A stretch of 64,000 nt of DNA from Bacillota bacterium (lineage in GTDB: Bacteria > Bacillota > Clostridia > Ch29). The stretch lies in assembly GCA_028686075.1 (NCBI GenBank), contig JAQUCT010000004.1, positions 1,833-65,832 on the forward strand, written 5' to 3'. The notes beneath the pieces were generated by a model. The model did not search any database. It was not told the DNA's origin and saw only the letters and a program-made list of their open reading frames with translations. How positions within the stretch are numbered: position 1 is the stretch's first letter; each line of letters starts with the position of its first letter. A program made the translations under genes and the position numbers. This document shows, one piece after another, positions 2,306-62,520 of the stretch.

Positions 2306-2453
2306 TTATATATATAACGTGCTTAAGACTTTACATCTTCTAACATGTCATCCTGAGCGATAGCGAAGGATCTATCTACAAGTAGGATTCTTCGGGCTTC
2401 GCTTCTTCGGAACGACAGATAAGGAATATTATACTATTAATGCGTTATATATA
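2306..2453 (+). repeat. dispersed MITE/REP-like element, copy R1 (forward orientation)
   Basis: TATATATAACGTGC...GCGTTATATATA terminal inverted repeats; internal TGTCATCCTGAGCGATAGCGAAGGATC and GATTCTTCGGGCTTCG units shared with 9 other loci. Confidence 0.85.
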
Positions 2454-2571
2454 AAGACTTTTTAAAACAGATGAACCGTATCCTGTGTAATCCAATAAAC
2501 ACAAAATGTATGAATGAGCACATATGACAAGCCTTATCTTTTCTGTATTGTTGTAAGGTTGCTGTCAAATA

Positions 2572-2612
2572 CAAAAAATAACAAAGCCCTGCAAACATAG
2601 TATTTGCAAGGC
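2572..2612 (-). terminator. rho-independent terminator of the tRNA operon
   Basis: Minus-strand hairpin GCCTTGCAAA-loop-TTTGCAGGGC followed by TTTGTTATTTTTT. Confidence 0.6.
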
Positions 2613-2620
2613 TTTTATTC

Positions 2621-2697
2621 TGGTGCGCCCTGAGGGATTCGAACCCCCGACCAACTGATTCGAAGTCAGCGACTCTATCCAGCTGAGCTAAGGGCGC
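2621..2697 (-). tRNA. tRNA-Arg (anticodon TCG)
   Basis: Revcomp GCGCCCTTAGCTCAGCTGGATAGAGT...anticodon loop CUUCGAA...GGTTCGAATCC...CCA; cloverleaf folded by eye. Confidence 0.9.
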
Positions 2698-2731
2698 ATA
2701 TTTATACGCCGCCGCATCGGCGCAGATTGGA

Positions 2732-2807
2732 TGGTGACCCATCCGCGACTCGAACGCGGGACACCCTGATTAAAAGTCAGGTGCTCTGCCGACTGAGCTA
2801 ATGGGTC
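2732..2807 (-). tRNA. tRNA-Lys (anticodon TTT)
   Basis: Revcomp GACCCATTAGCTCAGTCGGCAGAGC...loop CUUUUAA...GTTCGAGTC...CCA. Confidence 0.9.
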
Positions 2808-2813
2808 ACAAAA

Positions 2814-2889
2814 TGGCTGGGGCGGCAGGACTCGAACCTACGAATGCCAGAGTCAAAGTCTGGTGCCTTACCGGCTTGGCTACGCCCCA
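2814..2889 (-). tRNA. tRNA-Gln (anticodon TTG)
   Basis: Revcomp TGGGGCGTAGCCAAGCCGGTAAGGC...loop CUUUGAC...GGTTCGAGTCC...CCCCAGCCA, very close to E. coli tRNA-Gln. Confidence 0.9.
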
Positions 2890-2898
2890 AAGATAATG

Positions 2899-2976
<78 letters not shown>

Positions 2977-2982
2977 ATATAA

Positions 2983-3059
2983 TGGTGCGCCTGCAGGGAC
3001 TCGAACCCCGGGCTCACGGATTAGAAGTCCGTTGCTCTATCCACCTGAGCTACAGGCGC
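2983..3059 (-). tRNA. tRNA-Arg (anticodon TCT)
   Basis: Revcomp GCGCCTGTAGCTCAGGTGGATAGAGC...loop CUUCUAA...GGTTCGAGTCC...CCA. Confidence 0.9.
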
Positions 3060-3064
3060 AAAAC

Positions 3065-3138
3065 TGGAGCGGGTGATGGGAATCGAACCCACGCGACTAG
3101 CTTGGAAGGCTAGGGCTCTACCATTGAGCTACACCCGC
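3065..3138 (-). tRNA. tRNA-Gly (anticodon TCC)
   Basis: Revcomp GCGGGTGTAGCTCAATGGTAGAGC...loop CUUCCAA...GGTTCGATTCC...CCA. Confidence 0.9.
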
Positions 3139-3158
3139 ACATTCTCCAACAATAAGCT

Positions 3159-3187
3159 ATTATAGCAAACCGGAGCTTGACTGTCAA
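3159..3187 (-). promoter_or_regulatory. consensus sigma-A promoter of the tRNA operon
   Basis: Minus strand TTGACA (3182-3187) -17 nt- TATAAT (3159-3164), about 20 bp upstream of tRNA-Gly. Confidence 0.75.
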
Positions 3188-3271
3188 TGTTCAAAATTTT
3201 CCGTCCCGGTCCGGATGGAGCAGTGATTTTATTGTAAACCAAAAATGGCTCCGGGTCAAGGATTAATGCGA

Positions 3272-3769
3272 TCAAAATTCCACTATCACGGGTTTAATAT
3301 TGCCATTTTGTATTTCAATTATTCCATAGGTGGGCCGATGTACATTCCTTGGCCTCGAAACGCTCCCGGGGTTTAAAAAAACCATCTCGTCCACCCTTAC
3401 AATCCTGGCACTGTGGGTATGTCCAAAGAGTACTATATCGGCACCAATTTCCAACCCCTTATAGTACAATACCTTTATTCCGTCCTTTACCCTGTATTTG
3501 TGCCCATGTACGGCAAACACCGTTTTGCCCCCAATGGCTATTCTCTGCTCGGAGGGAGTATTTGTATCGGTGAAAAAATCGCAGTTTCCGCTAACCTTGT
3601 AAATCGGCCCCGAATGAATCTTTTTAATATGCTCGCAGTCCTTAACATAATCCCCAAGGTGAAAAATAACGTCCGCCCCGCTCATGTGGTTTATGGCCTT
3701 TTCAAGTGCCTGCCTGTCCCCGTGGCTATCGCTTATAACTCCTATTCTCAAATCCCGTCTCCCCTCCAA
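3272..3769 (-). CDS. metallophosphoesterase, YfcE/MJ0936 family
   Basis: [11 protein letters not shown] ... GDYV ... VHGHKY..LFGHTH calcineurin-like motifs; 165 aa. Confidence 0.8.
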   Translation of the reverse strand: MEGRRDLRIGVISDSHGDRQALEKAINHMSGADVIFHLGDYVKDCEHIKKIHSGPIYKVSGNCDFFTDTNTPSEQRIAIGGKTVFAVHGHKYRVKDGIKVLYYKGLEIGADIVLFGHTHSARIVRVDEMVFLNPGSVSRPRNVHRPTYGIIEIQNGNIKPVIVEF

Positions 3770-4361
3770 GGTCGGACAGCCGCTTCCTGACCTTTGAAAA
3801 TGCCCTTGCCCTATGGCTTATGGAATTTTTTGTCCGGGCATCCAGCTGGGCAAAGGTCCTATCGTAGTCCGGGAGGTAAAACAAAGGGTCGTAGCCAAAA
3901 CCACCGGTGCCCTTAGGCTCAAACAGTATCTGCCCTTCGCATTCTCCCCGCACCGTAAAATGGCCGCCATCGGGAAACACCACCGTTGCCGCACAGACAA
4001 ACCTTGCCGTCCTTTTAGCTTCGGGGACATCCACCATCATAGCAAGCAGCTTTAAGTTGTTGCTCTCATCGGTCGCATTTTTACCCGAGAACCGGGCGGA
4101 ATGCACTCCCGGCCGGCCACATAGCTCGTCCACCTCCAGCCCGGAATCGTCTGCTATGGCTGTCATGCCGGTGGCCTCCATGAACTCCAGTGCCTTTTTA
4201 TAAGAATTCTCCTCAAAGGTGGCCCCGTCTTCAACCACCTCAAATTCCGCCCCTGCATCGACCGCGGACATAACTGTCCAATCCAGTCCCTCCAGTATTT
4301 CCATTATCTCTTTCGCCTTTTTTTTATTTCTGCTGGCAACCACCATTGTCTTTTTTGTCAT
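3726..4361 (-). CDS. rdgB: dITP/XTP pyrophosphatase (Ham1/RdgB)
   Basis: [14 protein letters not shown]...TFEENS..KA... Ham1 family signature; adjacent to rph as in Bacillus. Confidence 0.85.
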
Positions 4362-5100
4362 CCTTCAAACCTCCCGGCAACACGTCTTCCAGGGCCTTTT
4401 TTTGGGCCTCCGCCAGTTTCCCTATACCGTTCATTCCCAGCTCCACCATCCTGTACATCCTGTCCACCGTAAAGGGAAAGGCCTCCCCCGTACCCTGGAT
4501 CTCCACAACCTTGCCGGTACCGGTCATTACAAGGTTCATATCCACCTGGGCTTTGCTGTCCTCGGCATAGCACAGGTCCAGTGCGATCTCTCCGTCCACA
4601 ATGCCTACGCTCACCGCCGCCACCATATCGGTAACCGGTATCTCCTTTATTATCCCCTGTTTCTTCATGTGGCCCAGCGCATCCACCAGTGCCACAAAGG
4701 AGCCGGTTATGGATGCGGTCCTTGTACCGCCGTCCGCCTGGAGTACGTCACAGTCTATCCAGATTGTGTACTCCCCTCCAAGTTTGTCCAGGTTAACTAT
4801 CGACCTAAGGGACCTTCCAATTAGCCTTTGTATCTCCTGGGTCCTTCCCTCCGGCCTTCCCCTGACAATCTCCCTTACCTTCCTTACAGCCGTGGAGCGG
4901 GGCAGCATGGAGTATTCCGCCGTAATCCATCCCCGGCCCATACCCTTTAAAAATTGGGGCACCTTCTCCTCCACTGAGGCGGTACACAGCACCTTTGTAT
5001 CGCCGGTCTCTATAAGAACCGACCCTTCACCGTATTTGGTGAAATTTTTGGTAATTCTAACCGGTCTCAACTCATTAAACAGTCTTCCGTCTATCCTCAA
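4324..5100 (-). CDS. rph: ribonuclease PH
   Basis: RIDGR...RPVRIT...[18 protein letters not shown]...[15 protein letters not shown] PNPase/RNase PH family; probable TTG start. Confidence 0.88.
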
Positions 5101-5195
5101 AAACCACTCAACTCCTTTTTCCCGAACGGCGGCCCTGAGCCCGTTTCTCCTTTGGGCCGCCTGGTAAACTCCTTATATCATATCATAATTATTGC

Positions 5196-6224
5196 CTAAT
5201 GGTACTCATTTGCAAACACAGGTACATCAATTACGCTTTCCAATACCACGCCGGTAGGCAGCTGCGCCGGCTGCCCGTCCACAAGGAACACCACCCCGGT
5301 GACCGCCGGGTACTCCTTAAGGGTTAGCGCGATGGATTTAACTATATTCTCCGCTACGCTGTCGCCGCCTTTATAATCGAAAATTCCCTTACCGAAGTTA
5401 AGATAGGCTATACCGTTTTTTATCCCCATTCCATTTATACTTACATTATCCGGTATGGAGGACTTCAAACCGCTTCCCCCCGGCGGGCCCCCCAATAGGC
5501 ACTTTAGTGCCGCGTCCATGTCCTCTCCGGCGGTGCCTGTGCCCAGCGTTACCGGTACAAAGTATTCGTAACCCTTTTCGTTTGTCCGGTGGAAATATAT
5601 CGTTACTCTGGAGCCTGCCACATCTCCGGCGGTGTTTATGTCTTCCCTTTCAATAGGACCACTGGTGCTGGTGCCAAACTTTAAGGTCTCCATCACGTCC
5701 CCTTCTATCATAAACTGAACACTGTCCACCGTATTAAACTCAGTCAGCGTATAAACCACCGAATTAAGCATTAATTCCTCTTCTTTGACGGTGCCGTAAT
5801 TTAAAGCCTCCGCCGACAGGTCCACCTTAGCCAGCCCGTCCCTTATGGTAAGACCCAGCACCTCCGTGCCTTCGGGGACGGCAGAATAAAGTCCCGTATC
5901 CTGCGCCATAACAGACAGGTCTGTGTCGGATATTAGTCTTTGCAGCGCAGCCCTGGCGATGCCTTCCTCCCACTCAATATTAACTGAAACCGGAACAAGG
6001 TATCCATCGCTGTCCCTGTAATACAGCACCGTATCCCTAATTCTGGCACCCACCGCACCGTCAACCTCCAAATCCTCCCCGGGCAGGGTATCGGTCTCCG
6101 GTGCCTCCAGGGAATCGCCACCACCATTTATCCAATCCAAAAATATAGTGACAGGGTTCTGGCAGCCCGTTACAAAGACCGCCATACAGACTATTATTAC
6201 CACCGCAGCAATGCGTTTTAACAT
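5196..6224 (-). CDS. gerM: GerM-family sporulation/germination lipoprotein (two GerMN domains)
   Basis: Lipoprotein signal MLKRIAAVVIIVCMAVFVTGC with SD GGGGAGG 7 nt upstream; the track ORF extends to 6263; gerM-rph neighbourhood as in B. subtilis. Confidence 0.7.
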   Translation of the reverse strand: MLKRIAAVVIIVCMAVFVTGCQNPVTIFLDWINGGGDSLEAPETDTLPGEDLEVDGAVGARIRDTVLYYRDSDGYLVPVSVNIEWEEGIARAALQRLISDTDLSVMAQDTGLYSAVPEGTEVLGLTIRDGLAKVDLSAEALNYGTVKEEELMLNSVVYTLTEFNTVDSVQFMIEGDVMETLKFGTSTSGPIEREDINTAGDVAGSRVTIYFHRTNEKGYEYFVPVTLGTGTAGEDMDAALKCLLGGPPGGSGLKSSIPDNVSINGMGIKNGIAYLNFGKGIFDYKGGDSVAENIVKSIALTLKEYPAVTGVVFLVDGQPAQLPTGVVLESVIDVPVFANEYH

Positions 6225-6251
6225 TCCAATTCCTCCCCGATTTTCTTTAAC

Positions 6252-6466
6252 TATATAACGCACTAATAATATTACATTCCTTTACCTGTCATTCCGAAGA
6301 AGCGAAGCCCGTAGAATCCGACTCTGTCGCTTAAGAGGGCGAAGCCCGTAGAATCTTATTGTAGATAGACATTTAGCTGTCAAAGGTCCTTCGCTACCGC
6401 TCAGGATGACAGAATCGCTCAGGATGACACGTTAGAAGATGTAAAGTCTTAAGCACGTTGTATATA
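6252..6466 (-). repeat. MITE/REP-like element copy R2 (reverse orientation, long variant with internal unit duplications)
   Basis: Revcomp aligns end-to-end with R1: TATATACAACGTGCTTAAGACTTTACATCTTCTAACGTGTCATCCTGAGCG...GAATGTAATATTATTAGTGCG. Confidence 0.85.
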
Positions 6467-6499
6467 AAATATATTAAGAAGGAATGGCCACTATGATTT

Positions 6500-7024
6500 T
6501 TATTTCCTCTTAACGCTCCTCATGTATCCGCCCCTTGTCTCCCGGGTATCACTGACTGTAACAAAAGCTTCGGCATCGGTTTTTTTGAGGTAATCCATAA
6601 GCACGTGCAGCTCTTTCCTGTGAAGCGTTGTATCCAGCATGCACACGGGGCCGTTCTTGCCTATGCCCTCAATCATTGTAACGCCAAAGCCCATGCTCCG
6701 GAGCTTTTCTGCCAACCCTTCATCGCATGTTTTTTTGGGAACAATCCTGACCATAATGGTTCCGATAGCCATTTTATTCTCTATAATGCTTCCCACAACG
6801 TTGCCCACAGCAAAACCCGAGGAGTATGCCAGTATGTTTACCCAATTATCCAATGTACTCATAACCCTTCCGAGAGCCAGAATGTAAATGGTTACCTCGA
6901 AAAACCCCAGTACTCCGGCGAGGTACTTTTTGCCCCGCACTATCAATAGCATCCTAACTGTGAGCAAAGACACATCTATTACTCTTGCAAAAAATATAAA
7001 CAGAAAATTCAATAAAACACCCAT
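6500..7024 (-). CDS. UPF0316/DUF2179 family small membrane protein
   Basis: 174 aa with N-terminal TM segments and a C-terminal soluble domain; SD GGAGGG present. Family assignment from memory only. Confidence 0.5.
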   Translation of the reverse strand: MGVLLNFLFIFFARVIDVSLLTVRMLLIVRGKKYLAGVLGFFEVTIYILALGRVMSTLDNWVNILAYSSGFAVGNVVGSIIENKMAIGTIMVRIVPKKTCDEGLAEKLRSMGFGVTMIEGIGKNGPVCMLDTTLHRKELHVLMDYLKKTDAEAFVTVSDTRETRGGYMRSVKRK

Positions 7025-7115
7025 ATGATTCCCTCCATAGAATTAGTATTAAGTTTTAAGTCCTTATTATTTCATATTCAAAGAAAATACTAATATTTCC
7101 TTTGAACAAAGTCAA

Positions 7116-7146
7116 CATAAAAAAGCCCGGGAAACTTAAGTTCCCG
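7116..7146 (-). terminator. rho-independent terminator after the amidase gene
   Basis: Minus strand CGGGAACTTAAGTTTCCCG followed by GGCTTTTTTATG. Confidence 0.7.
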
Positions 7147-7247
7147 ACAAAGTCACGGGACACACCGCTTTCCGAGGGTATTCCTTGCTGCGGCATGTCC
7201 CCTACTATAATAAACTATCTATTTTGAAACCTGGCTAATCCTTATTT

Positions 7248-9245
7248 CTATTCATTGGTCAGCAGTATTTCATTCACGTAGCGCACTATACCGTTTGACA
7301 GCGCCTGGGCACACCTCTGTCTGTAGCCTTCGGTAACAAGTAGTGCCCTTTCATTACTGTTTGTCAAAAATCCTAATTCCGCAATAACCGCCGGCATCTT
7401 TGTCTCCCGGGTAACCACCAGATTTGGCCTTGGTATTAATCCTCTGTCAGCGGTTTTGAGTTCCCGGAGCAGTTCCTGCTGTATTATCTTTGCCAGCGTG
7501 TAATTGTCCCTGTTGTCCAGTTCACTCTTTTCGGATGGGTAGTACAGCGTCTCCACACCGTAAATGGAACTGTTGGTCTCGTGGGCGTTGGCATGAACGC
7601 TTATATACAGGTCGGCATTGGCTGCGTTCGCTATGCCTGCTCTTTCGTACAGGTCTACAAAACTGTCGTCCTCCCTTATCATGAGGGTCCTGAAACCAAG
7701 GTCCTCAAGCAGTGCCCTCAACCGGTGGGACACATCTATGTTTATGTCCTTTTCTTTGACACCGCCGTGGTTTGCCCCGGGGTCACCGCCACCATGACCG
7801 GGGTCTATTACTATTAGCGTATCCTGATACAAAGAAGGCACAGCCGACAGTTCCAGCACTATTTCACGGGCCTTATTCGGCGAAGCTACCTTGTACCTGG
7901 CCTCTTCCTTGAGATATACAACTATATAGCCCGCCTTCTCGGAAGAATCGTAGGGTATAGATACTATCCTGTCTACAACCCCGTTATTGATTAAAACCTC
8001 TCCCTCCTCGATGAAGGCGTCCTTATCGGGTATTTCAACAGTGACGGTCCTTTCATTTTTGTCATATTCGACGCTGTACTCTACCTTTTCCTTCATGTCT
8101 ATCGAAAGGATACCGGTCTTCCATCCCGTGCCGACGTATTCTATCGACTGGAGCGGGAACCCGTCTACGAATACCCGCAATCCCTTTTCGCTGCTCTCTA
8201 CGTTGTACTGAAGGGCGTGGTCAAGGTCGATTACCGTCCTTACCGTATTCTCTTCGAACTGTGAGAACCTTACCGACCGGATGCCGTCCCTTGCTATGGG
8301 AATAGAACCGTCCTTCATGCCCCCCAGACGGGTGTTGAACATATCCACAACGATCCTATCGGGTTGTTGCAGCGTCATTGTTTCGAAATCCAGCCTTGAG
8401 GTGGCACCCACCACAAGCAACTTTCTATCTCCCTCATCCACGTAGTGGATATCATTGACCGTATTTACCGTTCTTATCTTAATCTGCTTTGCGTCCTCGT
8501 CATAATCTATGCTGTATCCGGAGGGGCTGATAAGGTCTATCACTACCCTGGATATGTTGGGGTTTACCTCGAACTGGGACGCCCTTACCCGAATCATATT
8601 ACCCCTGTCTACATCTATCCTGCTTGTGTCCGACCGGAAAACGGTATTCTGAAAGTCTATAACCAGCCTGTCCGGCTCCTGCAAAAACATGGTCCGGTAC
8701 GCTACATCGCCGGTGGTATTTAGTATAATTGCATCCTCCCGACTATCGTACCGCATATCCAGTATATCCGCCTTGGGCGAAGTAAGCAACACTGTATAGG
8801 TGGAATTATCCCAACCCACATCAAGGCCAACAACCTCGGTAACGGCCCTTACCGGAACCATTGTCCGGTCGTTTATCAGCTTGGCGGGGACCTCCAGGGC
8901 TGCCTTGTTACCGTTTATATCCATCTCGCTGCTGTCAATTTTTAGTTTTACCTTTTTGTCACCGGTATTTATGGTTACCTCATAGTTCTGCCCGTCCCAG
9001 TCCACGCTGGCCCCGGTGCTTTCGGTTATTATGCGTATGGGTACAAGAGTCCTGTCGTTAATTATAACCGCGGGTACATCCGAGTTAAGTACCTTGCCAT
9101 CCAATTTTATCGTAACCGGGGGAGCTTTATATGTAACCTGTTTGCCGTCCATATGTAGTATTAGCTGCTGTTCCTTAAGCGCATATACGCTCGTGCCCGA
9201 CATCAAAATAACCACAATCAATACCAGTGCCGCCGCCTTTTTCAA
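7248..9245 (-). CDS. N-acetylmuramoyl-L-alanine amidase with N-terminal CuAO_N repeats and AMIN domains
   Basis: Signal peptide; two copper-amine-oxidase-N-like repeats (LVPIRIITESTGASVDWDG / MVPVRAVTEVVGLDVGWDN); C-terminal Amidase_3 (LIVIDPGHGGGDPGA...YISVHANA...). Confidence 0.8.
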   Translation of the reverse strand: MKKAAALVLIVVILMSGTSVYALKEQQLILHMDGKQVTYKAPPVTIKLDGKVLNSDVPAVIINDRTLVPIRIITESTGASVDWDGQNYEVTINTGDKKVKLKIDSSEMDINGNKAALEVPAKLINDRTMVPVRAVTEVVGLDVGWDNSTYTVLLTSPKADILDMRYDSREDAIILNTTGDVAYRTMFLQEPDRLVIDFQNTVFRSDTSRIDVDRGNMIRVRASQFEVNPNISRVVIDLISPSGYSIDYDEDAKQIKIRTVNTVNDIHYVDEGDRKLLVVGATSRLDFETMTLQQPDRIVVDMFNTRLGGMKDGSIPIARDGIRSVRFSQFEENTVRTVIDLDHALQYNVESSEKGLRVFVDGFPLQSIEYVGTGWKTGILSIDMKEKVEYSVEYDKNERTVTVEIPDKDAFIEEGEVLINNGVVDRIVSIPYDSSEKAGYIVVYLKEEARYKVASPNKAREIVLELSAVPSLYQDTLIVIDPGHGGGDPGANHGGVKEKDINIDVSHRLRALLEDLGFRTLMIREDDSFVDLYERAGIANAANADLYISVHANAHETNSSIYGVETLYYPSEKSELDNRDNYTLAKIIQQELLRELKTADRGLIPRPNLVVTRETKMPAVIAELGFLTNSNERALLVTEGYRQRCAQALSNGIVRYVNEILLTNE

Positions 9246-9588: not shown

Positions 9589-9773
9589 TATATACAACAC
9601 ATTAATAGTATTACATTCCTTTATCTGTCATTCCGAAGAAGCGAAGCCCTAAGAATCCGAATCTGGCGTTCTGAGAGCGAAGCCCCCTGTAATTCTGAGG
9701 GCGCAGCCCGAAGAATCTTACTTGAAGTTAGATCCTTCGCTACCGCTCAGGATGACAGAATTGCTCAGGATAT
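9589..9773 (-). repeat. MITE/REP-like element copy R3 (reverse; right end truncated; abuts stop of the 9773..10750 gene)
   Basis: TATATACAACACATTAATAGTATTACATTCCTTTATCTGTCATTCCGAAGAAGCGAAGCCC...CGCTCAGGATGACAGAATTGCTCAGGAT. Confidence 0.8.
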
Positions 9774-10750
9774 TATATTACCTTATAAAGCTCATCACTC
9801 TGGGGAGGGTCAATCGGCGTTTCGATTCCGTCGACCACAATGGCCCTGCCTTTTTCCACCACTTCCCCTATTATTGAGGCGGGTATGCCTTCACCTTGGA
9901 GGGCCTTTAGCATCTCCTCCCCATTCCGGCAGGTAATAAGCATACAGCCACTTGATATAAGCTTAAGGGGGTCCAGACCCAGCTCTCTACATATAGCCTT
10001 GGTTTCAGGCCTTACCGGTATCCTATCCCGGTACACCCTAATGCCCACCCCCGAGGCCTCGGCAATTTCCCAGATGGCACCCAGCACTCCGCCTTCAGTC
10101 ACATCATGCATCGCCGAAGCACCCATTCTGCCCCCTATCATTCCTTCCTTAACCACACTTATATTCTCCATAAAGGACCGGGCATTCTCCAAAAGGTCCT
10201 GGCGGACCCTGCCATGCAGCCGCTCCGCAAGGTCGTGGGCTATAATGGCCGTGCCCTCAAGGCCGGCCCATTTTGTAAGAATTATGCTGTCCCCCGGCCG
10301 GGCACCGGCGGACTTTACTACTCGGTCCTTTTCTGCCCTGCCTATGGCCGTAGTGGACACCACGATGCGGTTAACCGCCTGGGTTATCTCGGTATGCCCC
10401 CCGATAATCTCAACCCTTAAGGAGGCCGCCTCCTCCGCTGCCTGCCGGACAATATCCTGCAGTACCTCCAGGGTTGTCCCCTCCGGGGCCAGTATTGTAA
10501 GAAGCAGCCCGAAGGGCTCTACACCATTGGCCGCCACGTCGTTGCAGGATATGTGAACAGCAAGACGTCCAATTTCATTAGCGGCACCAGTGATTGGGTC
10601 GGTAGACAAAACGCAGGCGTAATCGCCGAAGTCCAGCACGCTACAGTCCTCCCCCACCTGCGGTCTTACAAGCACCTCTTCCCTTTTGAACCGGAAACTG
10701 GAGAATATCCTCTGTTCAAGAACGTCGGATGGCAGTTTGCCACTTTTCAT
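9773..10750 (-). CDS. AIR synthase-related (PurM/HypE/ThiL-fold) protein of unknown specific function
   Basis: VGEDCSVLDFGD...TDPITG N-domain and a C-terminal AIRS_C-like region. It does not end in the HypE C-terminal Cys motif. Confidence 0.55.
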   Translation of the reverse strand: MKSGKLPSDVLEQRIFSSFRFKREEVLVRPQVGEDCSVLDFGDYACVLSTDPITGAANEIGRLAVHISCNDVAANGVEPFGLLLTILAPEGTTLEVLQDIVRQAAEEAASLRVEIIGGHTEITQAVNRIVVSTTAIGRAEKDRVVKSAGARPGDSIILTKWAGLEGTAIIAHDLAERLHGRVRQDLLENARSFMENISVVKEGMIGGRMGASAMHDVTEGGVLGAIWEIAEASGVGIRVYRDRIPVRPETKAICRELGLDPLKLISSGCMLITCRNGEEMLKALQGEGIPASIIGEVVEKGRAIVVDGIETPIDPPQSDELYKVI

Positions 10751-11397: not shown

Positions 11398-11537
11398 AGA
11401 ATACCTCCTTGCCTTTGTCGCTCTCCATGTTAAGTTTTCAATTATTCTTACGTATTATTCAAAGACTCCGGTTAATCCGGAGCCTTTGGTTTTTTTCCTT
11501 AAACAATGGGCATTCTAATATTCGGAGGTGGATTTTT

Positions 11538-11690
11538 TTGACCAACATCAATTGTTCAGAGAACTGTCGCCATCAGAAAAACGGCAAGTGCGAGCTTACC
11601 CATGTGGGCATTGTATCAGCCATAGGCAGTTCAAAATGCGCCTATTTCGAGCAAAAAGATTCGCCGCAAGCAAAGGCCAATCCTAAATAA
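11538..11690 (+). CDS. small Cys-rich DUF1540-like protein
   Basis: TTG start 6 nt after SD GGAGGTGG; NINCSENCRHQKNGKCELTHVGI fits the DUF1540 pattern (V.C.V..C.YN..G.C.A..I.V). The track ORF 11409..11690 is over-extended. Confidence 0.5.
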   Translation: MTNINCSENCRHQKNGKCELTHVGIVSAIGSSKCAYFEQKDSPQAKANPK

Positions 11691-11704
11691 GAAACATAGG
11701 GGCA

Positions 11705-11742
11705 GACAAGGGGACAGGCAGACAAGTCCCTGTCCCCTTGTC
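11705..11742. terminator. perfect 14-bp-stem hairpin between convergent genes (DUF1540 gene and gatB)
   Basis: GACAAGGGGACAGG-cagacaagtc-CCTGTCCCCTTGTC, followed by tandem 15-mers GGACTGGTCCTTGCT x2 and further GTCCCCTTGTC copies (11756-11790). Confidence 0.5.
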
Positions 11743-11799
11743 CGACCCTTGTCCGGACTGGTCCTTGCTGGACTGGTCCTTGCTGTCCCCTTGTCCGTG

Positions 11800-13227
11800 T
11801 TATAGGAGTTTTTTTAGTATATTGTTTACGAGGGCGGGGTTTGCCTTGCCCTTTGTCTCTTTCATGGTCTGCCCTACAAGAAAGCCCAAAGCTTTCTTGG
11901 TGCCTGCCCGGTAGTCCTCCACCGACTGCGGGTTTTTCTCCATTACTCTCTTTATTATCCCTGTAAGGGCCTCCTCGTCACTTATCTGCAAAAGCCCTAA
12001 CCGTTCCACTAATTTCTTTGGCTGCTCACCGGTCTCAAACATCTCGGTGAACACCCTCTTTGCGGCGGAGCCGCTCACCGTTCCATCGTCCACCAGTTTC
12101 AAAAGGTCCGCCATATACACAGCGGGGAAGGGTATATCCTCTGCCCCGGCACCCTTTTCGTTAAAAAGCCGCATAAGCTCGCCCATCACCCAGTTACTTA
12201 CCGTCTTGGGATCGCCGCCGTAGGATTTAACGCATTCTTCAAAGAACACGGCCATAGGGCGGGATGCGGTAATTACCCCGGCATCGTATTCCGGAAGGCC
12301 CCATTCCTCCACGTATCTTTTTGCTCTTTTATCCGGCAGTTCCGGAAGCTCTTTTCTTATTCGCTCTATATATTCTTCTTCCAACACCACCGGCACAAGG
12401 TCCGGCTCGGGAAAATACCGATAATCGTGGGCCTCTTCTTTGCTCCTTAAGGAGGTATTCTTCCCGGTAACATCGTCCCATTTACGGGTTTCCTGCACCA
12501 CCTCGCCGCCGGATTCTAAAACCTCAATCTGTCTTTTGCTTTCATCCTCTATGGCGTTAACCAGTGCCCTGAAAGAGTTTAGGTTTTTCATCTCGGTCCT
12601 TGTGCCAAGCACACTGTTTCCCTCTGGCCGCACCGACAGGTTGACGTCAAACCTTAATGACCCCTCCTGCATCCTGCAGTCAGAAACTTCGGTGTATTCC
12701 AAAATAGCTTTAATCTTTTCCGCGTACAGTCTCGCCTCCTCTGCACTCCTTAAATCCGGTTCGGACACTATCTCAATAAGGGGTACACCGCCCCTGTTAT
12801 AGTCCACCAGCGTGCTACCGTCCTCGGCCTCGTGCAGCAGCTTCCCTGCGTCCTCCTCAATGTGTATCCGCGTTATGCCAATCCTTTTGCTTCCAAAGTC
12901 ACCCTTTATATCCAGATATCCCTCTTCGCAGAGCGGCTGGTCGTACTGGGATATCTGGTACGCCTTGGGCAGGTCGGGGTAGAAATAGTTCTTTCGGTCC
13001 AGCTTGCTGAAACCGTTAATCTGGCAATTGGTGGCAAGCCCGGCCTTAACGGCGTATTCAATAACCTTTTTGTTTAGCACCGGTAGCGCCCCGGGGAGCC
13101 CTAAGCACACCGGGCAGCAGTGGGTATTCTCCTTGTCGCCAAAGGCTGTGGTACAGCCGCAAAATATTTTCGTATTTGTCGCCAGCTCGGCGTGTATCTC
13201 AAGCCCTATCACAGTCTCATAATTCAT
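11800..13227 (-). CDS. gatB: Asp-tRNA(Asn)/Glu-tRNA(Gln) amidotransferase subunit B
   Basis: [15 protein letters not shown]...CGCTTAFG...; 475 aa. Confidence 0.92.
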
Positions 13228-15009: not shown

Positions 15010-15190
15010 CGAATATAACCTTTACATCCCCTAGCCTGTCATGCTGATCGTTTCTGTCATCCTGAGCGATAGCGAAGGATCGTCCTCCAAGTAAGATTCT
15101 TCGGGCTTCGCCCTCTTAAATGACAGGCAACTTCGCTTCTATAAAATGACAGTTAAAGGAGTATAATATTATTAATACGCTGTATATGGA
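15010..15190 (+). repeat. MITE/REP-like element copy R4 (forward), between ligA stop and gatC start
   Basis: AATATAACCTTTACATCCCCTAGCCTGTCATGCTGATCGTTTCTGTCATCCTGAGCGATAGCGAAGGATC...GATTCTTCGGGCTTCGCCCTC...AATATTATTAATACGCTGTATATGGA. Confidence 0.85.
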
Positions 15191-24170: not shown

Positions 24171-24250
24171 TTATATATAATTGGATAGATCCTTTGCTTC
24201 GCTCAGGATGACACGCTATAAGATGTAAAGTCTTTATCCCGTTATATATA
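24171..24250 (-). repeat. MITE/REP-like element copy R5 (short, reverse) in the livK-livH intergenic spacer
   Basis: TTTATATATAATTGG...CGCTCAGGATGACACGCTATAAGATGTAAAGTCTTTATCCCGTTATATATA. Confidence 0.8.
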
Positions 24251-28691: not shown

Positions 28692-28832
28692 TATATATAA
28701 CGCATTAATAATATTACATTACTTTACTTGTCATTCCAAAGAAGCGAAGCCCGAAGAATCCGACTTAGGGATAGACCCTTCGCTATCGCTCAGGATGACA
28801 ACTGTGTAAAATCTTTTTTGCGTTATATATAT
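28692..28832 (-). repeat. MITE/REP-like element copy R6 (reverse), 26 bp upstream of the yerC start
   Basis: TATATATAACGCATTAATAATATTACATTACTTTACTTGTCATTCCAAAGAAGCGAAGCCCGAAGAATC...CGCTCAGGATGACA...GCGTTATATATA. Confidence 0.85.
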
Positions 28833-34088: not shown

Positions 34089-34092
34089 TCCT

Positions 34093-39579: not shown

Positions 39580-39625
39580 GACAGGAGAACCGTCCCCTTG
39601 TCTTGGAGAACCGTCCCCTTGTCTT
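39580..39625 (-). repeat. tandemly duplicated palindromic element (H4a/H4b) serving as the likely terminator downstream of the phosphoglycerate mutase gene
   Basis: AGACAGGAG-AACCGTCCCCTTGTCTTGGAG-AACCGTCCCCTTGTCT; on the minus strand H4a is followed by TTTTTT. Confidence 0.6.
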
Positions 39626-43006: not shown

Positions 43007-43113
43007 GAATAAACTACCCGTTTCGGGTAGTTTTAACTTTCTCTTATCATGCTAATATACAATTGACAATAGATTTTGCCAATCCAATTATAATGCGAAA
43101 GGAAGTGTTCTCC

Positions 43114-44327: not shown

Positions 44328-44510
44328 ACTGTCATTCTGTTATTGACGACAAAAATGCTTGACGGTAAAAGGGAGGCTTATGAAAGACTATGCTTTCTTG
44401 TTTGTCACTGTGAAGCGAAGTTGAAGAATCTGACTTTGTCATTCTGAACATAGTAAAGAATCTTGTGTTTTCAATAACTTAAAGACATTTAGCTGTCGCT
44501 CAGGATGACA
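44328..44510 (-). repeat. degenerate MITE/REP-like element copy R7 (no intact TIRs)
   Basis: GTCATTCTG x2, GAAGCGAAG, GACATTTAGCTGTCGCTCAGGATGACA. Confidence 0.6.
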
Positions 44511-45272: not shown

Positions 45273-45333
45273 TTAGCGGGATATCTTCCCGCTACCCTGT
45301 ATCCGACAGTTCAAAGGGGAGGTGAGAGATTGG

Positions 45334-45358
45334 AACCAGAAGAACCGTCCCTCTGGTT
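45334..45358 (-). repeat. small palindromic element (H2) overlapping the stop codon of the GMP synthase gene
   Basis: AACCAGA-AGAACCGTCCC-TCTGGTT: perfect 7-bp stem, conserved loop. Confidence 0.65.
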
Positions 45359-46355
45359 ACTCCCACTCAATGGTACCCGGCGGTTTTGTGGTAATGTCGT
45401 ATACAACCCGGTTTATACCCTGCACGTTGTTTACTATGCCCGATGAAATCCTCTCCAGCACCTCATAGGGAATTTTAGCCCAGTCCGCCGTCATACCGTC
45501 GGAACTCGTAACCGCCCTTATGGCTAGCGCATGTTCATAGGTCCTTTCATCCTCCGTTACACCTACGGTTTTTACGTCTAAAAGCACCGCAAAATACTGC
45601 CATATTTCCCTGTCAAGGCCGGCATTTGCTATCTCATTCCTTAATATCGCATCCGCTTCTTTTAGTATTTCAAGCTTCTCACGGGTGACTTCCCCCATTA
45701 TCCTTATAGCAAGGCCTGGACCCGGGAAAGGCTGACGCCATACATGCTGCTCCGAGATGCCAAGGCTTACGCCCACCTTTCTTACCTCGTCCTTAAAAAG
45801 GTCCCTCAAGGGCTCTATTAGGGACAGTTTCATGTCCTCGGGCAGCCCACCTACATTGTGGTGGCTCTTTATCACCGTCGCCGCTTTGCTGCCGCTTTCT
45901 ATAACATCGGGATAGATGGTGCCCTGCACAAGGAAGTCCACCTTGCCCAGCTTGCCGGCCTCCTCCTCGAACACCCTTATGAATTCCCCGCCTATTATCT
46001 TTCTCTTAACCTCGGGATCGGTTACGCCCTCAAGCCGGCTTAAGAACCTGTCCCTTGCATCAACAGTTATAAGGTTAATATTGAAAATATCTCTGAACAC
46101 CCTTTCAACCTGTATCTCTTCGTCCTTTCGCAGGAGGCCGTGGTCTACAAATATACAGGTAAGCCGATCACCGATGGCCCTGTGTACCAGCACCGCCGCC
46201 ACCGAGGAATCCACTCCGCCGCTTAGGGCGCAAAGTACTCTCTTTTCCCCCACCTTATCCCGTATGCTTTTTATCTGGTCTTCTATAAATATTGTAATAT
46301 TCAGGTCCGGCCTGCAGCCGCACACGTCGAATACAAAATCCGATGGCTGTGACAT
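45357..46355 (-). CDS. guaA: GMP synthase, ATP-pyrophosphatase (synthetase) domain only; no glutamine amidotransferase domain
   Basis: 332 aa beginning at the linker; [10 protein letters not shown]-loop; only 13 bp separates it from guaB, so no room for a GATase domain. Confidence 0.75.
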
Positions 46356-46368: not shown

Positions 46369-47990
<1,622 letters not shown>

Positions 47991-57099: not shown

Positions 57100-57261
57100 A
57101 TATATATAACGCACTTGAACGTTACATCCCCTAGCATGTCATCCTGAGCGGTAGCGAAGGATCTTGCTATAGCTAAATGTCTATCTCCAATAAGATTCTT
57201 CGGGCTTCGCCCTCAGAATGACGGACAAAAGAATGTAATATTATTAATGCGTTGTATATAG
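57100..57261 (+). repeat. MITE/REP-like element copy R9 (forward, intact TIRs) inside the pxp operon
   Basis: TATATATAACGCACTTGAACGTTACATCCCCTAGCATGTCATCCTGAGCGGTAGCGAAGGATC...GATTCTTCGGGCTTCGCCCTCAGAATGAC...GAATGTAATATTATTAATGCGTTGTATATA. Confidence 0.9.
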
Positions 57262-59216: not shown

Positions 59217-59222
59217 TTTTAT

Positions 59223-59245
59223 GGACAAAGAACCGTCCTCTGTCC
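59223..59245 (-). repeat. small palindromic element (H3) 10 bp downstream of the gdhA stop
   Basis: GGACAAAG-AACCGTCC-TCTGTCC. Confidence 0.6.
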
Positions 59246-59255
59246 GTTTATGTAA

Positions 59256-60512
59256 CTAATACCAGCCGCGAAGTTTCATTGCAGTCGCTACCCTCTTGAT
59301 TGCGATCATGTAGGCAGCTGTCCTCATGTCAACTCCCTTTTCTTCCTTAAGTGCCCATATGGCGTCGAAGGCCTCTTTCATTTTTATCATCTGCTTTTCC
59401 TGTACCTCTTCGAAGGTCCAGTAGTAGTTTTGCAGGTTCTGTACCCACTCAAAGTAGGATACAATAACTCCGCCCGAGTTGCATAGTATATCCGGGAACA
59501 ACGGTATTCCTCTTTGTTTAAAGACCTCGTCCCCTTCGGGTGTGGTCGGGCCGTTTGCTCCTTCAACCACCAGCTTGGCTTTAACATTGCCAGCGGTTTC
59601 GGCGGTCAGTTGGTTTTCCATGGCGCAGGGGAGTAAAATATCTACTTCCATTCCCAGTACATCCTCCCTGGGAAGCTCCTTGCCGCCGCCGGGGAAACCG
59701 GTTATAAGGAATTTATTGGTCTTTACATATTCCCTAAGGGCATTAACATCAATTCCATCTTCATTGTACAGCGTACAGGAAACGTCCGAAATGGCAACCA
59801 CTTTTGCACCAAGCTCGCTGAGGTATTTGCAGGTAAAGCTTCCTACGTTGCCAAAGCCCTGTACAGCTACTTTAGCACCTTCGAATTTCACTCCTACTTT
59901 GCCGGCGGCCATTTTTGCCATCATGGCAATTCCATAACCCGTTGCTTCGGTTCTTGCCAGAGAGCCACCAAATTCTACAGGCTTTCCGGTAATAACACCC
60001 ATCTCGGTGTACCCTCTTACCTTGCTTATCTCATCCACCATCCACGACATAACTTGACCATTGGTGCCTAAATCTGGGGCTGGAATATCCTTATTATCGC
60101 CAATAAAGTTGGCTATTGCCAATGCATATCCTCGGGCCAACCTCTCAAGTTCTCCCTGGGACAGCTTAGTCGGGTCCACTATAACTCCGCCCTTACCCCC
60201 GCCGTAGGGAGTACCGGTAACACCGCATTTGAACGTCATCCACATAGACAAAGCCTTTACCTCGTCCATTGTGACATCCTGGTGGAATCTTACGCCACCC
60301 TTCGCCGGCCCTACCGCATCGTTGTGCTGTGCCCTGTAACCTATGAAGGTTTTTAGCTCACCATTGTCCATCCTCACAGGTATACATACTTCCATGGTTC
60401 TCAGAGGCTGTTTGATAATTTCATAAACAGCCGGTTCCGTACCTAGCTTGTCGCATGCTGCTTTAATCTGCTGCTGGGCAATTTCGAAAGGGTTCAAAGT
60501 CTTTTCCGCCAT
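59256..60512 (-). CDS. gdhA: NAD(P)-specific glutamate dehydrogenase
   Basis: GPAKGGVRFH...K..GGGKGG motifs; 418 aa. Confidence 0.92.
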   Translation of the reverse strand: MAEKTLNPFEIAQQQIKAACDKLGTEPAVYEIIKQPLRTMEVCIPVRMDNGELKTFIGYRAQHNDAVGPAKGGVRFHQDVTMDEVKALSMWMTFKCGVTGTPYGGGKGGVIVDPTKLSQGELERLARGYALAIANFIGDNKDIPAPDLGTNGQVMSWMVDEISKVRGYTEMGVITGKPVEFGGSLARTEATGYGIAMMAKMAAGKVGVKFEGAKVAVQGFGNVGSFTCKYLSELGAKVVAISDVSCTLYNEDGIDVNALREYVKTNKFLITGFPGGGKELPREDVLGMEVDILLPCAMENQLTAETAGNVKAKLVVEGANGPTTPEGDEVFKQRGIPLFPDILCNSGGVIVSYFEWVQNLQNYYWTFEEVQEKQMIKMKEAFDAIWALKEEKGVDMRTAAYMIAIKRVATAMKLRGWY

Positions 60513-60703
60513 ATTATAGCCTCCTTATATATTTTATTTAAAACTTAAAGCAAAACCCAAAAAAACCTAGTATCTTCCTGGGAGACCTGCCTGACATATA
60601 ACAGACAATCCCCTAACTTGAATTATAACATATTAAAAAAAATTGTAAACCTTAAAAAAACGTTGCAAACGGTATATACGTGTAGGATTAATTGCTTTCT
60701 ATT

Positions 60704-61516
60704 CTACTCTATTATCAAACTTTTGACCGTTACATTGATTGCCAGCACGTTCAGCGAGGTCATATATTCAATCTCGGATTTAATTATATCTTTCATCGCC
60801 GCTACCCGCCCCCCTATTGCAATTCCGTATTTGACCGCCACATCGGTATTAAGTACAATACCATGGGGATAAATAGCAACCTCTGTATTATATATCCTGC
60901 CTATACCGTCAATTTTTTTTGCGGCGGCCAGAGCTATCTGAATTATTGCCCGGCCGTATATAGTATACCTTCCCAGATAGCTGTATGTGGGCCGGACCAC
61001 TGTTTTCTCATCAACTGTAACGGAATCATCCCTCCTTTTGGTGAATATTTTAAGCGTGTCCAGGAAGTACCCGGAAAAGTCCTTCTTTACCTCCAGGGTG
61101 GGAACGGGTATTACGTGTTTACCCTTTAGGAATCTCTGCTGACGGGCAAGCTTTATTTCTTCGCTGGAAGCAATATCTTCTATATAAAACCGGGTTTGGG
61201 GTGCGGGAATACTCAGGGCCTGGGTTATTCTGTCCACCATCCCGTCAGAGGTGCCCAGAATAAGTACTCGCCCAGGTTTATGACGCCTTATTGCCTCGGC
61301 CACTTCCTCCCGATGCTGCGGCTCCATAAAAAGAGCCCTTCTTACAGCCGCTATTTTGGTAGGCTCTTTTTTGGCCGAGGCTCCCGCTATAATCTTATTG
61401 CCCTTTATAAACAGACCGTCGTCTATTACGTATTCTATATTGTTCTCCTTAGCAACCAGTAAAGCCTTGTAGCTTTTGCCGGTCCCGCTAATACCTACTA
61501 GCGACGTTACCTGCAT
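60704..61516 (-). CDS. P-loop (GISGTGKS) N-domain fused to an Asp23/alkaline-shock-like C-domain; function unknown
   Basis: N-terminal Walker A resembling HPr-kinase-type P-loops; C-terminal ...IALAAAKKIDGIGRI...VAIGGRVAAMKDIIKSEIEYMTSLNV...VNVTVKSL fits the Asp23 family. ATG after SD GGAGGAG. Confidence 0.5.
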   Translation of the reverse strand: MQVTSLVGISGTGKSYKALLVAKENNIEYVIDDGLFIKGNKIIAGASAKKEPTKIAAVRRALFMEPQHREEVAEAIRRHKPGRVLILGTSDGMVDRITQALSIPAPQTRFYIEDIASSEEIKLARQQRFLKGKHVIPVPTLEVKKDFSGYFLDTLKIFTKRRDDSVTVDEKTVVRPTYSYLGRYTIYGRAIIQIALAAAKKIDGIGRIYNTEVAIYPHGIVLNTDVAVKYGIAIGGRVAAMKDIIKSEIEYMTSLNVLAINVTVKSLIIE

Positions 61517-61604
61517 AGGCACTCCTCCCCTTCGCCTTAAAACACCAAAACCGCAGTAGACAAATGCTATCCAAACGTCTGCGGCGTGTTTACCGGGGTT
61601 ACTG

Positions 61605-62258
61605 TTACTGGGCGTTTTCCATTCTGTCCCTTTCGTTCATAAGATAGGCCAAAACCATGAGGCTTTCGCTCAATTGCACGTTCTCAACTATTACGTTTTC
61701 GGGTACTTCAAGGTCGGTGGGCGCAAAATTCCAGATTGCCTTAATACCTTCCCCGGTCAGCCTTTTGGCGACGCTCTGGGCACCCTCTTTAGGTGTACAT
61801 ATTATACCCACATTAATATCGGTATTTTCTATAAACTCTCCCATGTCATCAATATCCATTATTTTTATGTCCCCGATGCTTATACCCACAAGCCGCGGGT
61901 TTATATCGAACATCGCCTTCAATACAAAGCCGGAGCCCCTGAATCCGCTGTAGTTAGCTATTGCCTGGCCGAGGTTGCCGGCACCTACTATTATAGCATT
62001 ATTGGGTTTGTGAAGGCCAAGGATGTTGGCAATTTCGTCCCTTAATTCCCTTACGTTATAACCATAACCCTGCTGGCCAAAACCACCAAAGCAGTTTAAG
62101 TCCTGTCTTATCTGAGAGGCAGTAAAGCCTAAAATTTTCCCGAATTCCTTCGATGATATTCTGGTAATTCCCTTTTCCACCAACTCGTCGAGGTATCTAT
62201 AGTATTTGGGTAATCTCCTAATTACGGCCATGGATACATTAATCTTTATTTTGTCCAT
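61605..62258 (-). CDS. rex: redox-sensing transcriptional repressor Rex
   Basis: VIRRLPKYYRYL winged helix, Rossmann GAGNLG; start at MDKIK after SD GGAGGG. Confidence 0.9.
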   Translation of the reverse strand: MDKIKINVSMAVIRRLPKYYRYLDELVEKGITRISSKEFGKILGFTASQIRQDLNCFGGFGQQGYGYNVRELRDEIANILGLHKPNNAIIVGAGNLGQAIANYSGFRGSGFVLKAMFDINPRLVGISIGDIKIMDIDDMGEFIENTDINVGIICTPKEGAQSVAKRLTGEGIKAIWNFAPTDLEVPENVIVENVQLSESLMVLAYLMNERDRMENAQ

Positions 62259-62331
62259 TCTATCCCTCCTCATTCCATAGTATGTCATAGGATTAGCTAA
62301 TTACTTCCACCTCATATTTAAGTATATCAGT

Positions 62332-62349
62332 TTGTTAAATAATTACCAA
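62332..62349. promoter_or_regulatory. candidate Rex operator upstream of rex (autoregulation)
   Basis: TTGTTAAATAATTACCAA vs clostridial ROP consensus TTGTTAANNNNTTAACAA (16/18). Confidence 0.4.
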
Positions 62350-62423
62350 TATATTTTTAAAAGTTTTTCATATTTCTTTATTATTAACGGCCCTTTTGTT
62401 AAAATGGTATCTAGGTGTCAGAC

Positions 62424-62520
62424 GCTATATATAATGTGCTTAAGACTTTACATATTCTAACGTGTCATCCTGAGCGATCCTGTCATCCTGAGCGAAAGCG
62501 GAGGTGAAATACTTGTCATT
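62424..62520 (+). repeat. MITE/REP-like element copy R10 (forward, right end truncated) running into the ABC-F start region
   Basis: TATATATAATGTGCTTAAGACTTTACATATTCTAACGTGTCATCCTGAGCGATCCTGTCATCCTGAGCGAAAGCGGAGGTG. Confidence 0.85.

Follow-up and report, generated by a model that had tools for sequence, protein, structure and literature searches.

What kind of element recurs between the genes of an uncultured Clostridium-like bacterium, and how did it come to occupy so many intergenic sites? We addressed this question for a stretch of 64,000 nucleotides of a Bacillota genome (assembly GCA_028686075.1, contig JAQUCT010000004.1, positions 1,833 to 65,832; hereafter the window), in which an initial annotation, made from the sequence alone, had listed ten copies of a dispersed repeat, R1 to R10. 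We find that the repeat is a previously unnamed, abundant family of miniature elements, each with a core of repetitive extragenic palindromes (REPs) bounded by terminal inverted repeats (TIRs), and that the kind of system is already known. The interpretation we favor, although only somewhat over its alternatives taken together, is that the family is one REP-cored mobile element, itself non-autonomous, which an enzyme encoded elsewhere would move in trans. The host is an uncultured spore-former of anaerobic digesters, and proteins of the window species recur in the metagenome-assembled genomes (MAGs) GCA_028692615.1, GCA_028698675.1 and GCA_028708325.1. The window itself is core chromosome, with ligA-gatCAB, the pur operon, guaAB, groESL, rex and a liv transporter.

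The ten loci belong to one repeat family. The terminal 12-mer TATATATAACGC, allowing at most one mismatch, occurs 7 times in the window against 0.37 expected, a number reached in none of 100 shuffles, and all 18 matches to the head motif GTCAT[TC]C[TC]GA lie within the ten loci. Direct and inverted matches of 50-80 nt, with 80-95% identity, connect the loci, and R1, R2, R3, R4, R6 and R9 are collinear in a MAFFT alignment. An nhmmer profile built from these six copies retrieved all four that had been left out (R5, R7, R8 and R10; E values in Table 1) and no eleventh copy in the window. The shared motifs and the recovery of the left-out loci thus indicate that the family is real and that the earlier list was complete for the window. 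Its coordinates were correct to within a few bases, with R10 reaching further, to about position 62550. Chance likeness of AT-rich intergenic DNA, or an assembly artefact, is effectively refuted as an explanation: short-read contigs do frequently break inside the element, but the observed counts were never reached by shuffles and the same copies are present in independent assemblies from NCBI, JGI, ENA and Logan.

Full copies (R1, R2, R4, R6 and R9) are 140-215 nt long, and the ten loci together range over 80-215 nt. The ends of full copies are sharp and read TATATATAACG...CGTTRTATATA; they are formed by an 11-12-nt near-perfect TIR, TATATATAACG(Y), and share a TTACAT about 21 nt further in. 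Between two arms of ~37-43 nt, Sa and Sb, lie units of ~27 nt, Ua and Ub, arranged as an inverted pair or cluster. In the orientation of R1, the order is TIR, Sa, Ua, a spacer of 13-30 nt, the complement of Ub, Sb and the second TIR. The Sa arm reads ...GCTTAAGACTTTACATCTTCTAAC, Ua reads TGTCATCCTGAGCG(A/G)TAGCGAAGGATC, the complement of Ub reads TGTCATTC(C/T)GA...GCGAAGCCCGAAGAATC, and Sb, which ends in the second TIR, is the complement of TATATA(T/C)AACGCATTAATAATATTACATTCCTTTACC. Sa and Sb are equal in length, collinear and each conserved, with only the terminal 9-11 nt and TTACAT in common. Ua and Ub are diverged from each other and form an inverted pair whose 5' tags point outward; the best-preserved Ub form is that of R9, ATTCT-GA-GGGC-GAA-GCCC-GA-AGAAT.

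The same sharp ends are shared by 41 full-length copies (5 in the window and 36 in relatives), and the flanks diverge immediately outside them. The arms fall into at least three subfamilies in which left and right variants are linked, and two subfamilies reside within one MAG, as would be expected if the whole composite is the copied unit. Variants arise by four routes: the first 18 nt of Ua, the head, can be duplicated in tandem (R2, R3, R4, R8 and R10), the number of tandem Ub-like units ranges from one to four, 15 nt can be inserted in the spacer, and copies can be truncated (R3, R5 and R10). The TIRs described in the initial annotation therefore apply to the full copies; R7 and R8 have none and R3 lacks one arm. 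Similarly, of the four copies it had called partial or degenerate, R5 is a half element and R10 is decayed, but R7 and R8 are unit-only hairpins without arms rather than degenerate composites. The expectation that copies fold into long imperfect hairpins held as a DNA fold for R6 (Table 1), R9 (z = -2.9) and R1 (z = -2.5), but not for R2 (z = -0.6).

The unit has the form TGTC-A-NNNN-GA-GCG(N/NN)AGC-GA-N'N'N'N'-T-C, in ~27 nt. It comprises an unpaired 5' tag, TGTC, and a 5-bp stem whose first pairs are A-T, T-A; a tandem G·A follows, and a mini-hairpin of the form GCG(N or NN)AGC completes it. The stem spans nine positions, of which positions 6-7 are G·A and not Watson-Crick, and covariation was found for four stem pairs. 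TGTC precedes nearly all units, with CGTC on the Ub of R9. Its loop, GNA or GNNA, is 3 or 4 nt long, and in the tail a C is followed by TC, TG, CC or TT. Every canonical unit has the GCGNAGC/GCGNNAGC mini-hairpin motif at its apex; the Ua units of the window have the NN form, GCGATAGC or GCGGTAGC, and the Ub of R9 has the extended form GGGC-GAA-GCCC.

Stem pairing was assessed by scanning IMG/VR with four stem positions per side left free, which matched at least 120 contigs. Among the matches listed, 143 units could be compared, and their free stems were perfectly complementary in 134, representing 12 stem haplotypes, where re-pairing of the stems over 10,000 permutations averaged 37 and never exceeded 56. 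In these same units, 96.8% of stem cells were paired, 42 of them with double-sided changes, which none of 500 shuffles reached, and slid controls collapsed to 16-55%. The apical N was free (A 52, C 49, G 26, T 16), and no G·T wobble was used in the stems. The minimum-energy fold of ViennaRNA is the proposed hairpin in both RNA and DNA forms; the nearest-neighbor energies are modest, and hence it is the covariation that supports the hairpin. The G·A pairs and the GCGNAGC apex exist on one strand only, which points to a single-stranded role, and the sequence suggests that the active form may be a DNA hairpin on one strand. As DNA, the GCGNAGC/GCGNNAGC mini-hairpin is extraordinarily stable and is known from phage single-stranded-DNA origins and promoters (PMC13037366). 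The unit shares the exact apex motif of the mini-hairpin DNA of Hirao (PMC13037366), with N free; here it forms the apex of a repeat dispersed in a chromosome, a setting that the review does not describe.

By description, and at the level of the superfamily only, the units fit within, or sit very close to, the CGTC/TGTC-tagged REPs of Di Nocera, De Gregorio and Rocco (2013, BMC Genomics 14:522; PMC3733652), which include dRS3 of Neisseria and RPE-4 and RPE-6 of Rickettsia. Like the unit, those REPs are small palindromes with an unpaired 5' CGTC tag, often TGTC and with CCTC also admitted, a stem that opens with complementary A-T, and a short unpaired tail beginning with C. They too form frequent inverted heterodimers, with spacers of 20-100 nt, lie between co-directional genes and occasionally within genes, occur in several phyla and have no associated transposase. 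A Kosmotoga intragenic peptide reported in the same study, VILD...IEF, implies by our back-translation an outer stem that agrees with the ATTCT...AGAAT of the unit. The unit differs in its non-Watson-Crick inner stem (tandem G·A plus GCGNAGC or GCGNNAGC), in a loop of 3-4 nt rather than 4-5, in a tail of C-(T/C)-N rather than CCA, and in the outward tags of its dimers. The stem of those REPs is given as 8-9 bp. Firmicutes and Clostridia are unmentioned in the text of PMC3733652, whereas the host here belongs to the Firmicutes. The CGTC-3 reference REPs were absent from the first 50 kb of Sinorhizobium pSymB. The unit is thus in part an already characterised repeat; the composite of arms plus units was not found named in the literature searched.

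Unit and composite differ in how far they are distributed. The unit is not lineage-specific: at least eight phyla, and phage contigs too, carry it singly, as dimers or in arrays. A genome scan located it in Acidobacteriota, Bacteroidota, Planctomycetota, Verrucomicrobiota, Chloroflexota, Alpha- and Gammaproteobacteria and other Clostridia, as well as on cyanobacterial plasmids, and in IMG/VR 12 viral contigs unrelated to one another matched the Ua core in an exact-pattern scan, one match being an array with an 87-nt period. When the canonical unit dimer was compared with plasmids and phages by blastn, only cyanobacterial plasmid matches and weak noise were returned; R6 had no blastn match among these sequences. 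The composite, in contrast, was matched by the profile only in about 7-8 species of uncultured Clostridia. The sources are six MAGs that bear the label Clostridia, Clostridiales or Bacillota (JAENYX01, with about 28 loci; JAAYJF01, with about 15; JAXGPT01, CAZGUG01, CAZDSH01 and DASRVG01), the metagenome contig L124 and the window species. In other phyla and in IMG/VR the profile matches the unit alone. Fourteen pattern matches to the arms in IMG/VR were rejected as chance matches, none being confirmed by the profile.

Several distant loci illustrate the forms that the unit takes. In the viral contig L014 of IMG/VR, eight unit heads lie on one strand of positions 1205-8735, with long open reading frames (ORFs) on the other strand, and some heads seemingly lie inside coding sequence. 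A Planktothrix agardhii plasmid (NZ_LR882964.1, 11503-19532) carries at least nine units in and around a DISARM/MmeI defence locus, with several units inside the annotated MmeI coding sequence and four head-only repeats in a run (GCTCAGAATGACA); the inner 2-bp stem covaries in these units, from GC-GAA-GC to GT-GAA-AC. An uncultured Bacteroidia MAG (contig L061, 3560-3760) has a pure array of direct units with a 44-nt period just upstream of a gene, and a viral contig (L009, 8510-8980) has an 87-nt-period array of inverted dimers that runs to the contig end.

According to the interpretation that we favor, Ua and Ub sit as an inverted pair inside arms ending in TATATATAACG, and the whole 140-215-nt composite would be copied into new intergenic sites. 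This spread is suggested by the same architecture at unrelated loci of several species, by the linked arm subfamilies and by empty orthologous sites. R9 is absent from the orthologous Nramp/pxpB junction in two sister contigs, L124 and L125 (81-83% protein identity to the window), whose spacer there measures 67-73 nt; that of the window measures 213 nt. At the R4 site, between ligA and gatC, the window species and the sister species JAAYJF01 both hold the element, and the spacer is 29 nt in L273/L274 and L275/L276; CAZGUG01 is one of the two R4-empty relatives, yet it carries the family elsewhere. A conserved ribosome-binding sequence, CGGAGGTGA, abuts the end of the R4 element to the base. 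Conversely, L124 and L272 hold copies at sites where the window has none. The flanks of all these sites (R9, R4, and those of L124 and L272) are diverged or have extra deletions. The copies are short, non-coding, dispersed and multi-copy, have TIRs and vary in presence between species, as do MITEs (miniature inverted-repeat transposable elements), and a transposase encoded elsewhere would accordingly move them in trans in MITE-like fashion. The initial description of the family as a non-autonomous MITE-like or REP/BIME-like (bacterial interspersed mosaic element) structured repeat, to which we add that it is modular, was supported point by point, as was its statement that no copy encodes a transposase; the elements have no coding capacity.

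A number of observations weigh against this interpretation. No presence/absence polymorphism was seen within the species at R2, R4, R6 or R9, which are occupied in every retrieved contig, and identity between copies is 80-95%, short of near-identity, which gives no sign of recent transposition. The search for a cognate transposase came out negative: the window and ~0.5 Mb of related loci yielded neither a transposase nor an autonomous copy, and a related autonomous element with the same ends, which a MITE would be expected to have, did not turn up there. The CGTC-type REPs that the units resemble are likewise reported to be without a dedicated transposase (PMC3733652). The target preference is weak, with a C just outside the TA run at 32 of 61 ends (52%). 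This C hints at an IS630-like C-TA-G target, but the empty sites counter it: at the right junctions of R4 and R9, which are exactly mapped, they read GA|CGGAGG and TT or CT|(G/A)ATTTC, not TA. Since the empty sites have no TA beside the conserved flank, a TA target-site duplication is unsupported, which argues against a simple IS630-type TA duplication. No direct repeat is visible around the copies beyond the TA run, and their flanks are strongly diverged.

One region of JAAYJF01 bears on accessory DNA near the copies. Between gatB and the next conserved gene lies an accessory segment of ~4.7 kb (L030, 2185-6938; L272, 9263-11706), which harbors element copies both internally and at its edge; the corresponding interval of the window is 390 nt (11410-11800). 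The segment was considered as an autonomous element and rejected, since its genes are for an ABC transporter, an ArsR-type regulator and a permease.

The features of the unit raise a different possibility, to which we give a lower but appreciable probability. The hairpin units would be the active part of a system of REP/BIME type, an HUH/Y1 enzyme (RAYT- or TIRYT-like) or another single-stranded-DNA factor would bind their TGTC-tagged hairpins and disperse unit dimers, and the arms would be a lineage-specific accompanying palindrome rather than the TIRs of a DDE transposon. The strand asymmetry of the unit and its avoidance of G·T wobble fit a single-stranded-DNA hairpin (PMC13037366). Armless unit dimers exist in the window (R7 and R8), units extend to at least eight phyla and phage contigs, no target-site duplication is visible at the R4 and R9 junctions, and head-only tandem duplications recur across phyla. 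Published precedents also exist for REP dimers inside TATA-ended palindromes. The GTAG-15 REP dimer of Anabaena variabilis lies within a TATAGGA...TCCTATA palindrome and the CGTC-1 REP dimer of Halothiobacillus neapolitanus within one of 41 bp, these long palindromes were never found empty, and some tyrosine transposases are flanked by long TIRs (PMC3733652). The composite resembles these palindromes in having a REP dimer inside conserved, partly complementary TATA-ended arms and no empty arms; a scan of the window and related loci detected no solo terminal repeats. It is unlike them in arm sequence, in its non-identical Sa and Sb, in phylum and in its arrays of up to four units.

The composite also resembles the REP/BIME and REPIN-RAYT systems of Proteobacteria, which have inverted hairpin doublets in mosaic clusters of variable number and are extragenic within operons and non-autonomous. 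It differs from REPIN-RAYT in its tag (TGTC, not GTAG), in that no RAYT gene, which those systems have as a single copy flanked by the REPs, was found in the Clostridia loci, and in a unit sequence common to several phyla. REP-RAYT systems are normally lineage-specific and vertically inherited, which sits poorly with a unit that is near-identical across phyla. A motif scan found no HUH/Y1 ORF beside units in any Clostridia locus, and 2,673 ORFs near units, when clustered, yielded only phage capsid, portal, terminase and adaptor families. The sole ORF with an HUH motif lies in the viral contig L014 (278-1138, minus strand) and has a weak, sub-threshold match to the replication-associated protein ORF2/G2P family. 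CGTC REPs are furthermore reported to have no dedicated transposase and not to flank tyrosine transposase genes (PMC3733652). Finally, the linkage of arm variants within subfamilies indicates joint movement of arms and core.

Once inserted, the unit arrays of a mobile composite would be free to grow and shrink, and such variation is observed directly. The suggestion that length variants arise by gain and loss of units is confirmed by polymorphism among otherwise identical strains. At R2, a 37-nt unit is present or absent between 17-nt direct repeats, with the short allele in 4 of 9 contigs and the flanks otherwise identical. R9 has one or three 18-nt heads among strains with otherwise identical flanks, and the three-head state occurs in three independent assemblies, two of which have linked single-nucleotide polymorphisms in common. 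Slippage or recombination between short direct repeats is the likely driver of these changes. Head-only tandem duplications are also found in a proteobacterial MAG, a viral contig and the Planktothrix plasmid; recurring in this way across phyla, they look intrinsic to the unit family.

The position of the copies bears on what they may do. Nine of the ten occupy tight spacers that separate genes of the same direction, among them the ligA-gatC, livK-livH and Nramp-pxpB spacers, and should therefore be transcribed; the distance to a stop codon or ribosome-binding site is often only 0-45 nt. On the transcribed strand, the RNA of R6 is predicted to fold at -44.8 kcal/mol (z = -5.8) and that of the R9 core at -29.6 kcal/mol (z = -3.9), and most copies, lying inside operons, would be co-transcribed and would fold as strong RNA hairpins. 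REPs and Correia elements affect mRNA stability and processing, and by analogy with REP/BIME and Correia elements a similar effect may be inferred here. R2, R6 and R9 contain no sigma-70-like promoter and no intrinsic terminator. Rfam at its gathering threshold returned only 6 tRNAs and a purine riboswitch for the whole window, and a permissive scan of R6 gave only noise. A self-cleaving, hammerhead-like ribozyme was considered and rejected, as the CUGANGA...GAAA core was absent and no Rfam match was obtained.

These properties could also belong to a cis-acting structural or regulatory element that is selected by the host and spreads only rarely, serving as an mRNA stabiliser, a processing site, a translation damper or a site for a nucleoid or replication protein. 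The tight co-directional spacers, the fixation of the R2, R4, R6 and R9 sites in the species population, the strong predicted RNA hairpins and the known effects of REPs and Correia elements would all suit such a role. We consider it improbable, given that the orthologous operons of relatives work without the element, that decay of copies seems unchecked, with truncation or degeneration in R3, R5, R7 and R10, that orientation to transcription is mixed, and that R2, R6 and R9 are without promoter or terminator consensus. In viral contigs, units stand on the same strand as the neighboring ORF in 30 cases and on the opposite strand in 18, with no clear orientation bias.

Among described families of similar size, Correia elements of Neisseria and the RUP and BOX elements of Streptococcus pneumoniae are likewise non-coding dispersed elements of 100-200 nt. 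The TIRs of Correia elements start with TATAG... and these elements are co-transcribed, as we propose for the composite, and BOX is modular (boxA-(boxB)n-boxC) and varies in how many internal modules it has. The composite has no sequence similarity to any of these and no IS630-type partner was found here; the TA target duplication of Correia and RUP is unsupported.

A broader and distinctly speculative possibility, which we think unlikely, is that the unit hairpin is a single element across many phyla and phages, implying a universal partner that recognizes single-stranded DNA, such as an HUH enzyme, a primase or another replication or repair factor. The near-invariant single-stranded features, the covarying stems and the recurrent head duplications point in this direction. 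A conserved partner of this kind is also suggested by how widely the unit is kept across phyla and by its asymmetry between strands. If true, the Clostridial composite would be a lineage-specific vehicle for the hairpins, and the spread and role of the 'orphan' CGTC-type REPs would be explained.

CGTC/TGTC REPs are widespread, and the unit now gains a testable structural definition (a covarying stem, tandem G·A and the GCGNAGC mini-hairpin). The sharp, recognizable ends of the composite make it trackable across related genomes. Variation in unit number between otherwise identical strains indicates that change is ongoing. At about one copy per 6 kb in the window, and inside operons such as ligA-gatCAB, liv and pxp, the family could influence operon expression in an abundant Clostridium of anaerobic digesters. 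The elements also have practical consequences, since they break short-read assemblies at many intergenic sites and mislead gene callers, as at the guaB start described below.

Table 1. Copies of the repeat family and other features of the window (window positions; for R1 to R10, + means that the Sa/Ua end is at the low coordinate)
Feature	Position	Strand	Description
R1	2309..2453	+	Full composite; nhmmer E = 1e-42
R1 layout			TIR 2309-2320, Sa, Ua 2346-2372, spacer, Ub (complement) about 2386-2417, Sb, TIR 2442-2453
R2	6252..6466	-	Full composite, longest copy; nhmmer E = 2e-56; extra Ua head (18-nt duplication), extra Ub-like unit, 15-nt spacer insert GCTAAATGTCTATCT
R3	9589..9775	-	Truncated, Sa arm and its TIR missing; Sb arm with TIR, three Ub-like units, Ua unit, one degenerate extra head
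R4	15013..15189	+	Full, decayed ends, 10-nt deletion in Sa; nhmmer E = 4e-55; fills ligA-gatC spacer
R5	24171..24250	-	Half element; nhmmer E = 1e-11; Sa arm and TIR (24239-24250), Ua unit, then short TA-rich end
R6	28692..28831	-	Minimal intact copy, both TIRs perfect; DNA fold z = -5.6
R6 layout, Sb side			TIR 28692-28703, Sb to 28728, Ub 28729-28760, then spacer
R6 layout, Sa side			Ua (complement) 28774-28800, Sa arm, TIR 28820-28831
R7	44330..44510	.	Unit-only degenerate cluster, no arms or TIRs; profile positions 51-158, E = 4e-6; solo head 44330-44339, two decayed direct units 44402-44463, spacer motif AGACATTTAGCTGTC, inverted head 44498-44510
R8	47878..47982	+	Unit-only inverted dimer (REPIN-like), no arms or TIRs; profile positions 38-159, E = 6e-12; units 47902-47928 (+) and 47950-47976 (-), one extra head
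R9	57101..57260	+	Full copy
R9 layout, Sa side			TIR 57101-57112, Sa, Ua 57137-57163, spacer 57164-57193
R9 layout, Sb side			Ub (complement) 57194-57223, Sb, TIR 57249-57260
R10	62426..62550	+	Decayed copy; nhmmer E = 7e-18; TIR-like end, Sa arm, two Ua heads, degenerate unit, trace of Sb
Region without long ORFs	1500-2300		~800 nt between amino-acid kinase gene and R1
Six-tRNA cluster	2624-3138	-	Directly adjoins R1
Purine riboswitch	39261-39361	-	82.6 bits; upstream of purine genes
AACCGTCC-loop hairpins	34063-34089, 39578-39625, 45333-45359, 59221-59247		Tandem pair at 39584-39625
Direct repeat	43199-43427, 43457-43685		229 nt, 86% identity; inside ORF 43063-44205

All copies are intergenic, as had been stated, with two that touch genes. 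The end of R3 meets the stop codon (9773-9775) of an AIRS-domain gene, 9773-10750. R8 supplies the ATG at which guaB is called: the start at 47907 lies inside an R8 head, GTCAT being read as ATGAC (region 47826-47907), and adds a 27-residue extension, MTKIIVQDD..., that is read from R8. The true guaB start is likely the methionine that follows this extension. R5 lies between the binding-protein and permease genes (livK-livH) of a branched-chain amino-acid ABC transporter operon. R10 has an ortholog of nearly full length in the sister-species contig L124 (12054-12284), and is thus the decayed remnant of a copy that the sister species has kept nearly whole.

The window contains no transposase gene. 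In the region between the amino-acid kinase gene and R1, ORFs on the gene strand do not exceed 46 residues, and Rfam gives no match there. A second repeat family consists of ~27-nt hairpins with the conserved loop AACCGTCC (e.g., AACACAAGAGAACCGTCCCTCTGTGTT), all just past gene ends; a search gave 8 matches against 1.35 expected, and the family amounts to five copies at four loci only. The direct repeat inside ORF 43063-44205 is probably an internal domain duplication, in an ORF with a domain like the N-terminal domain of copper amine oxidase.

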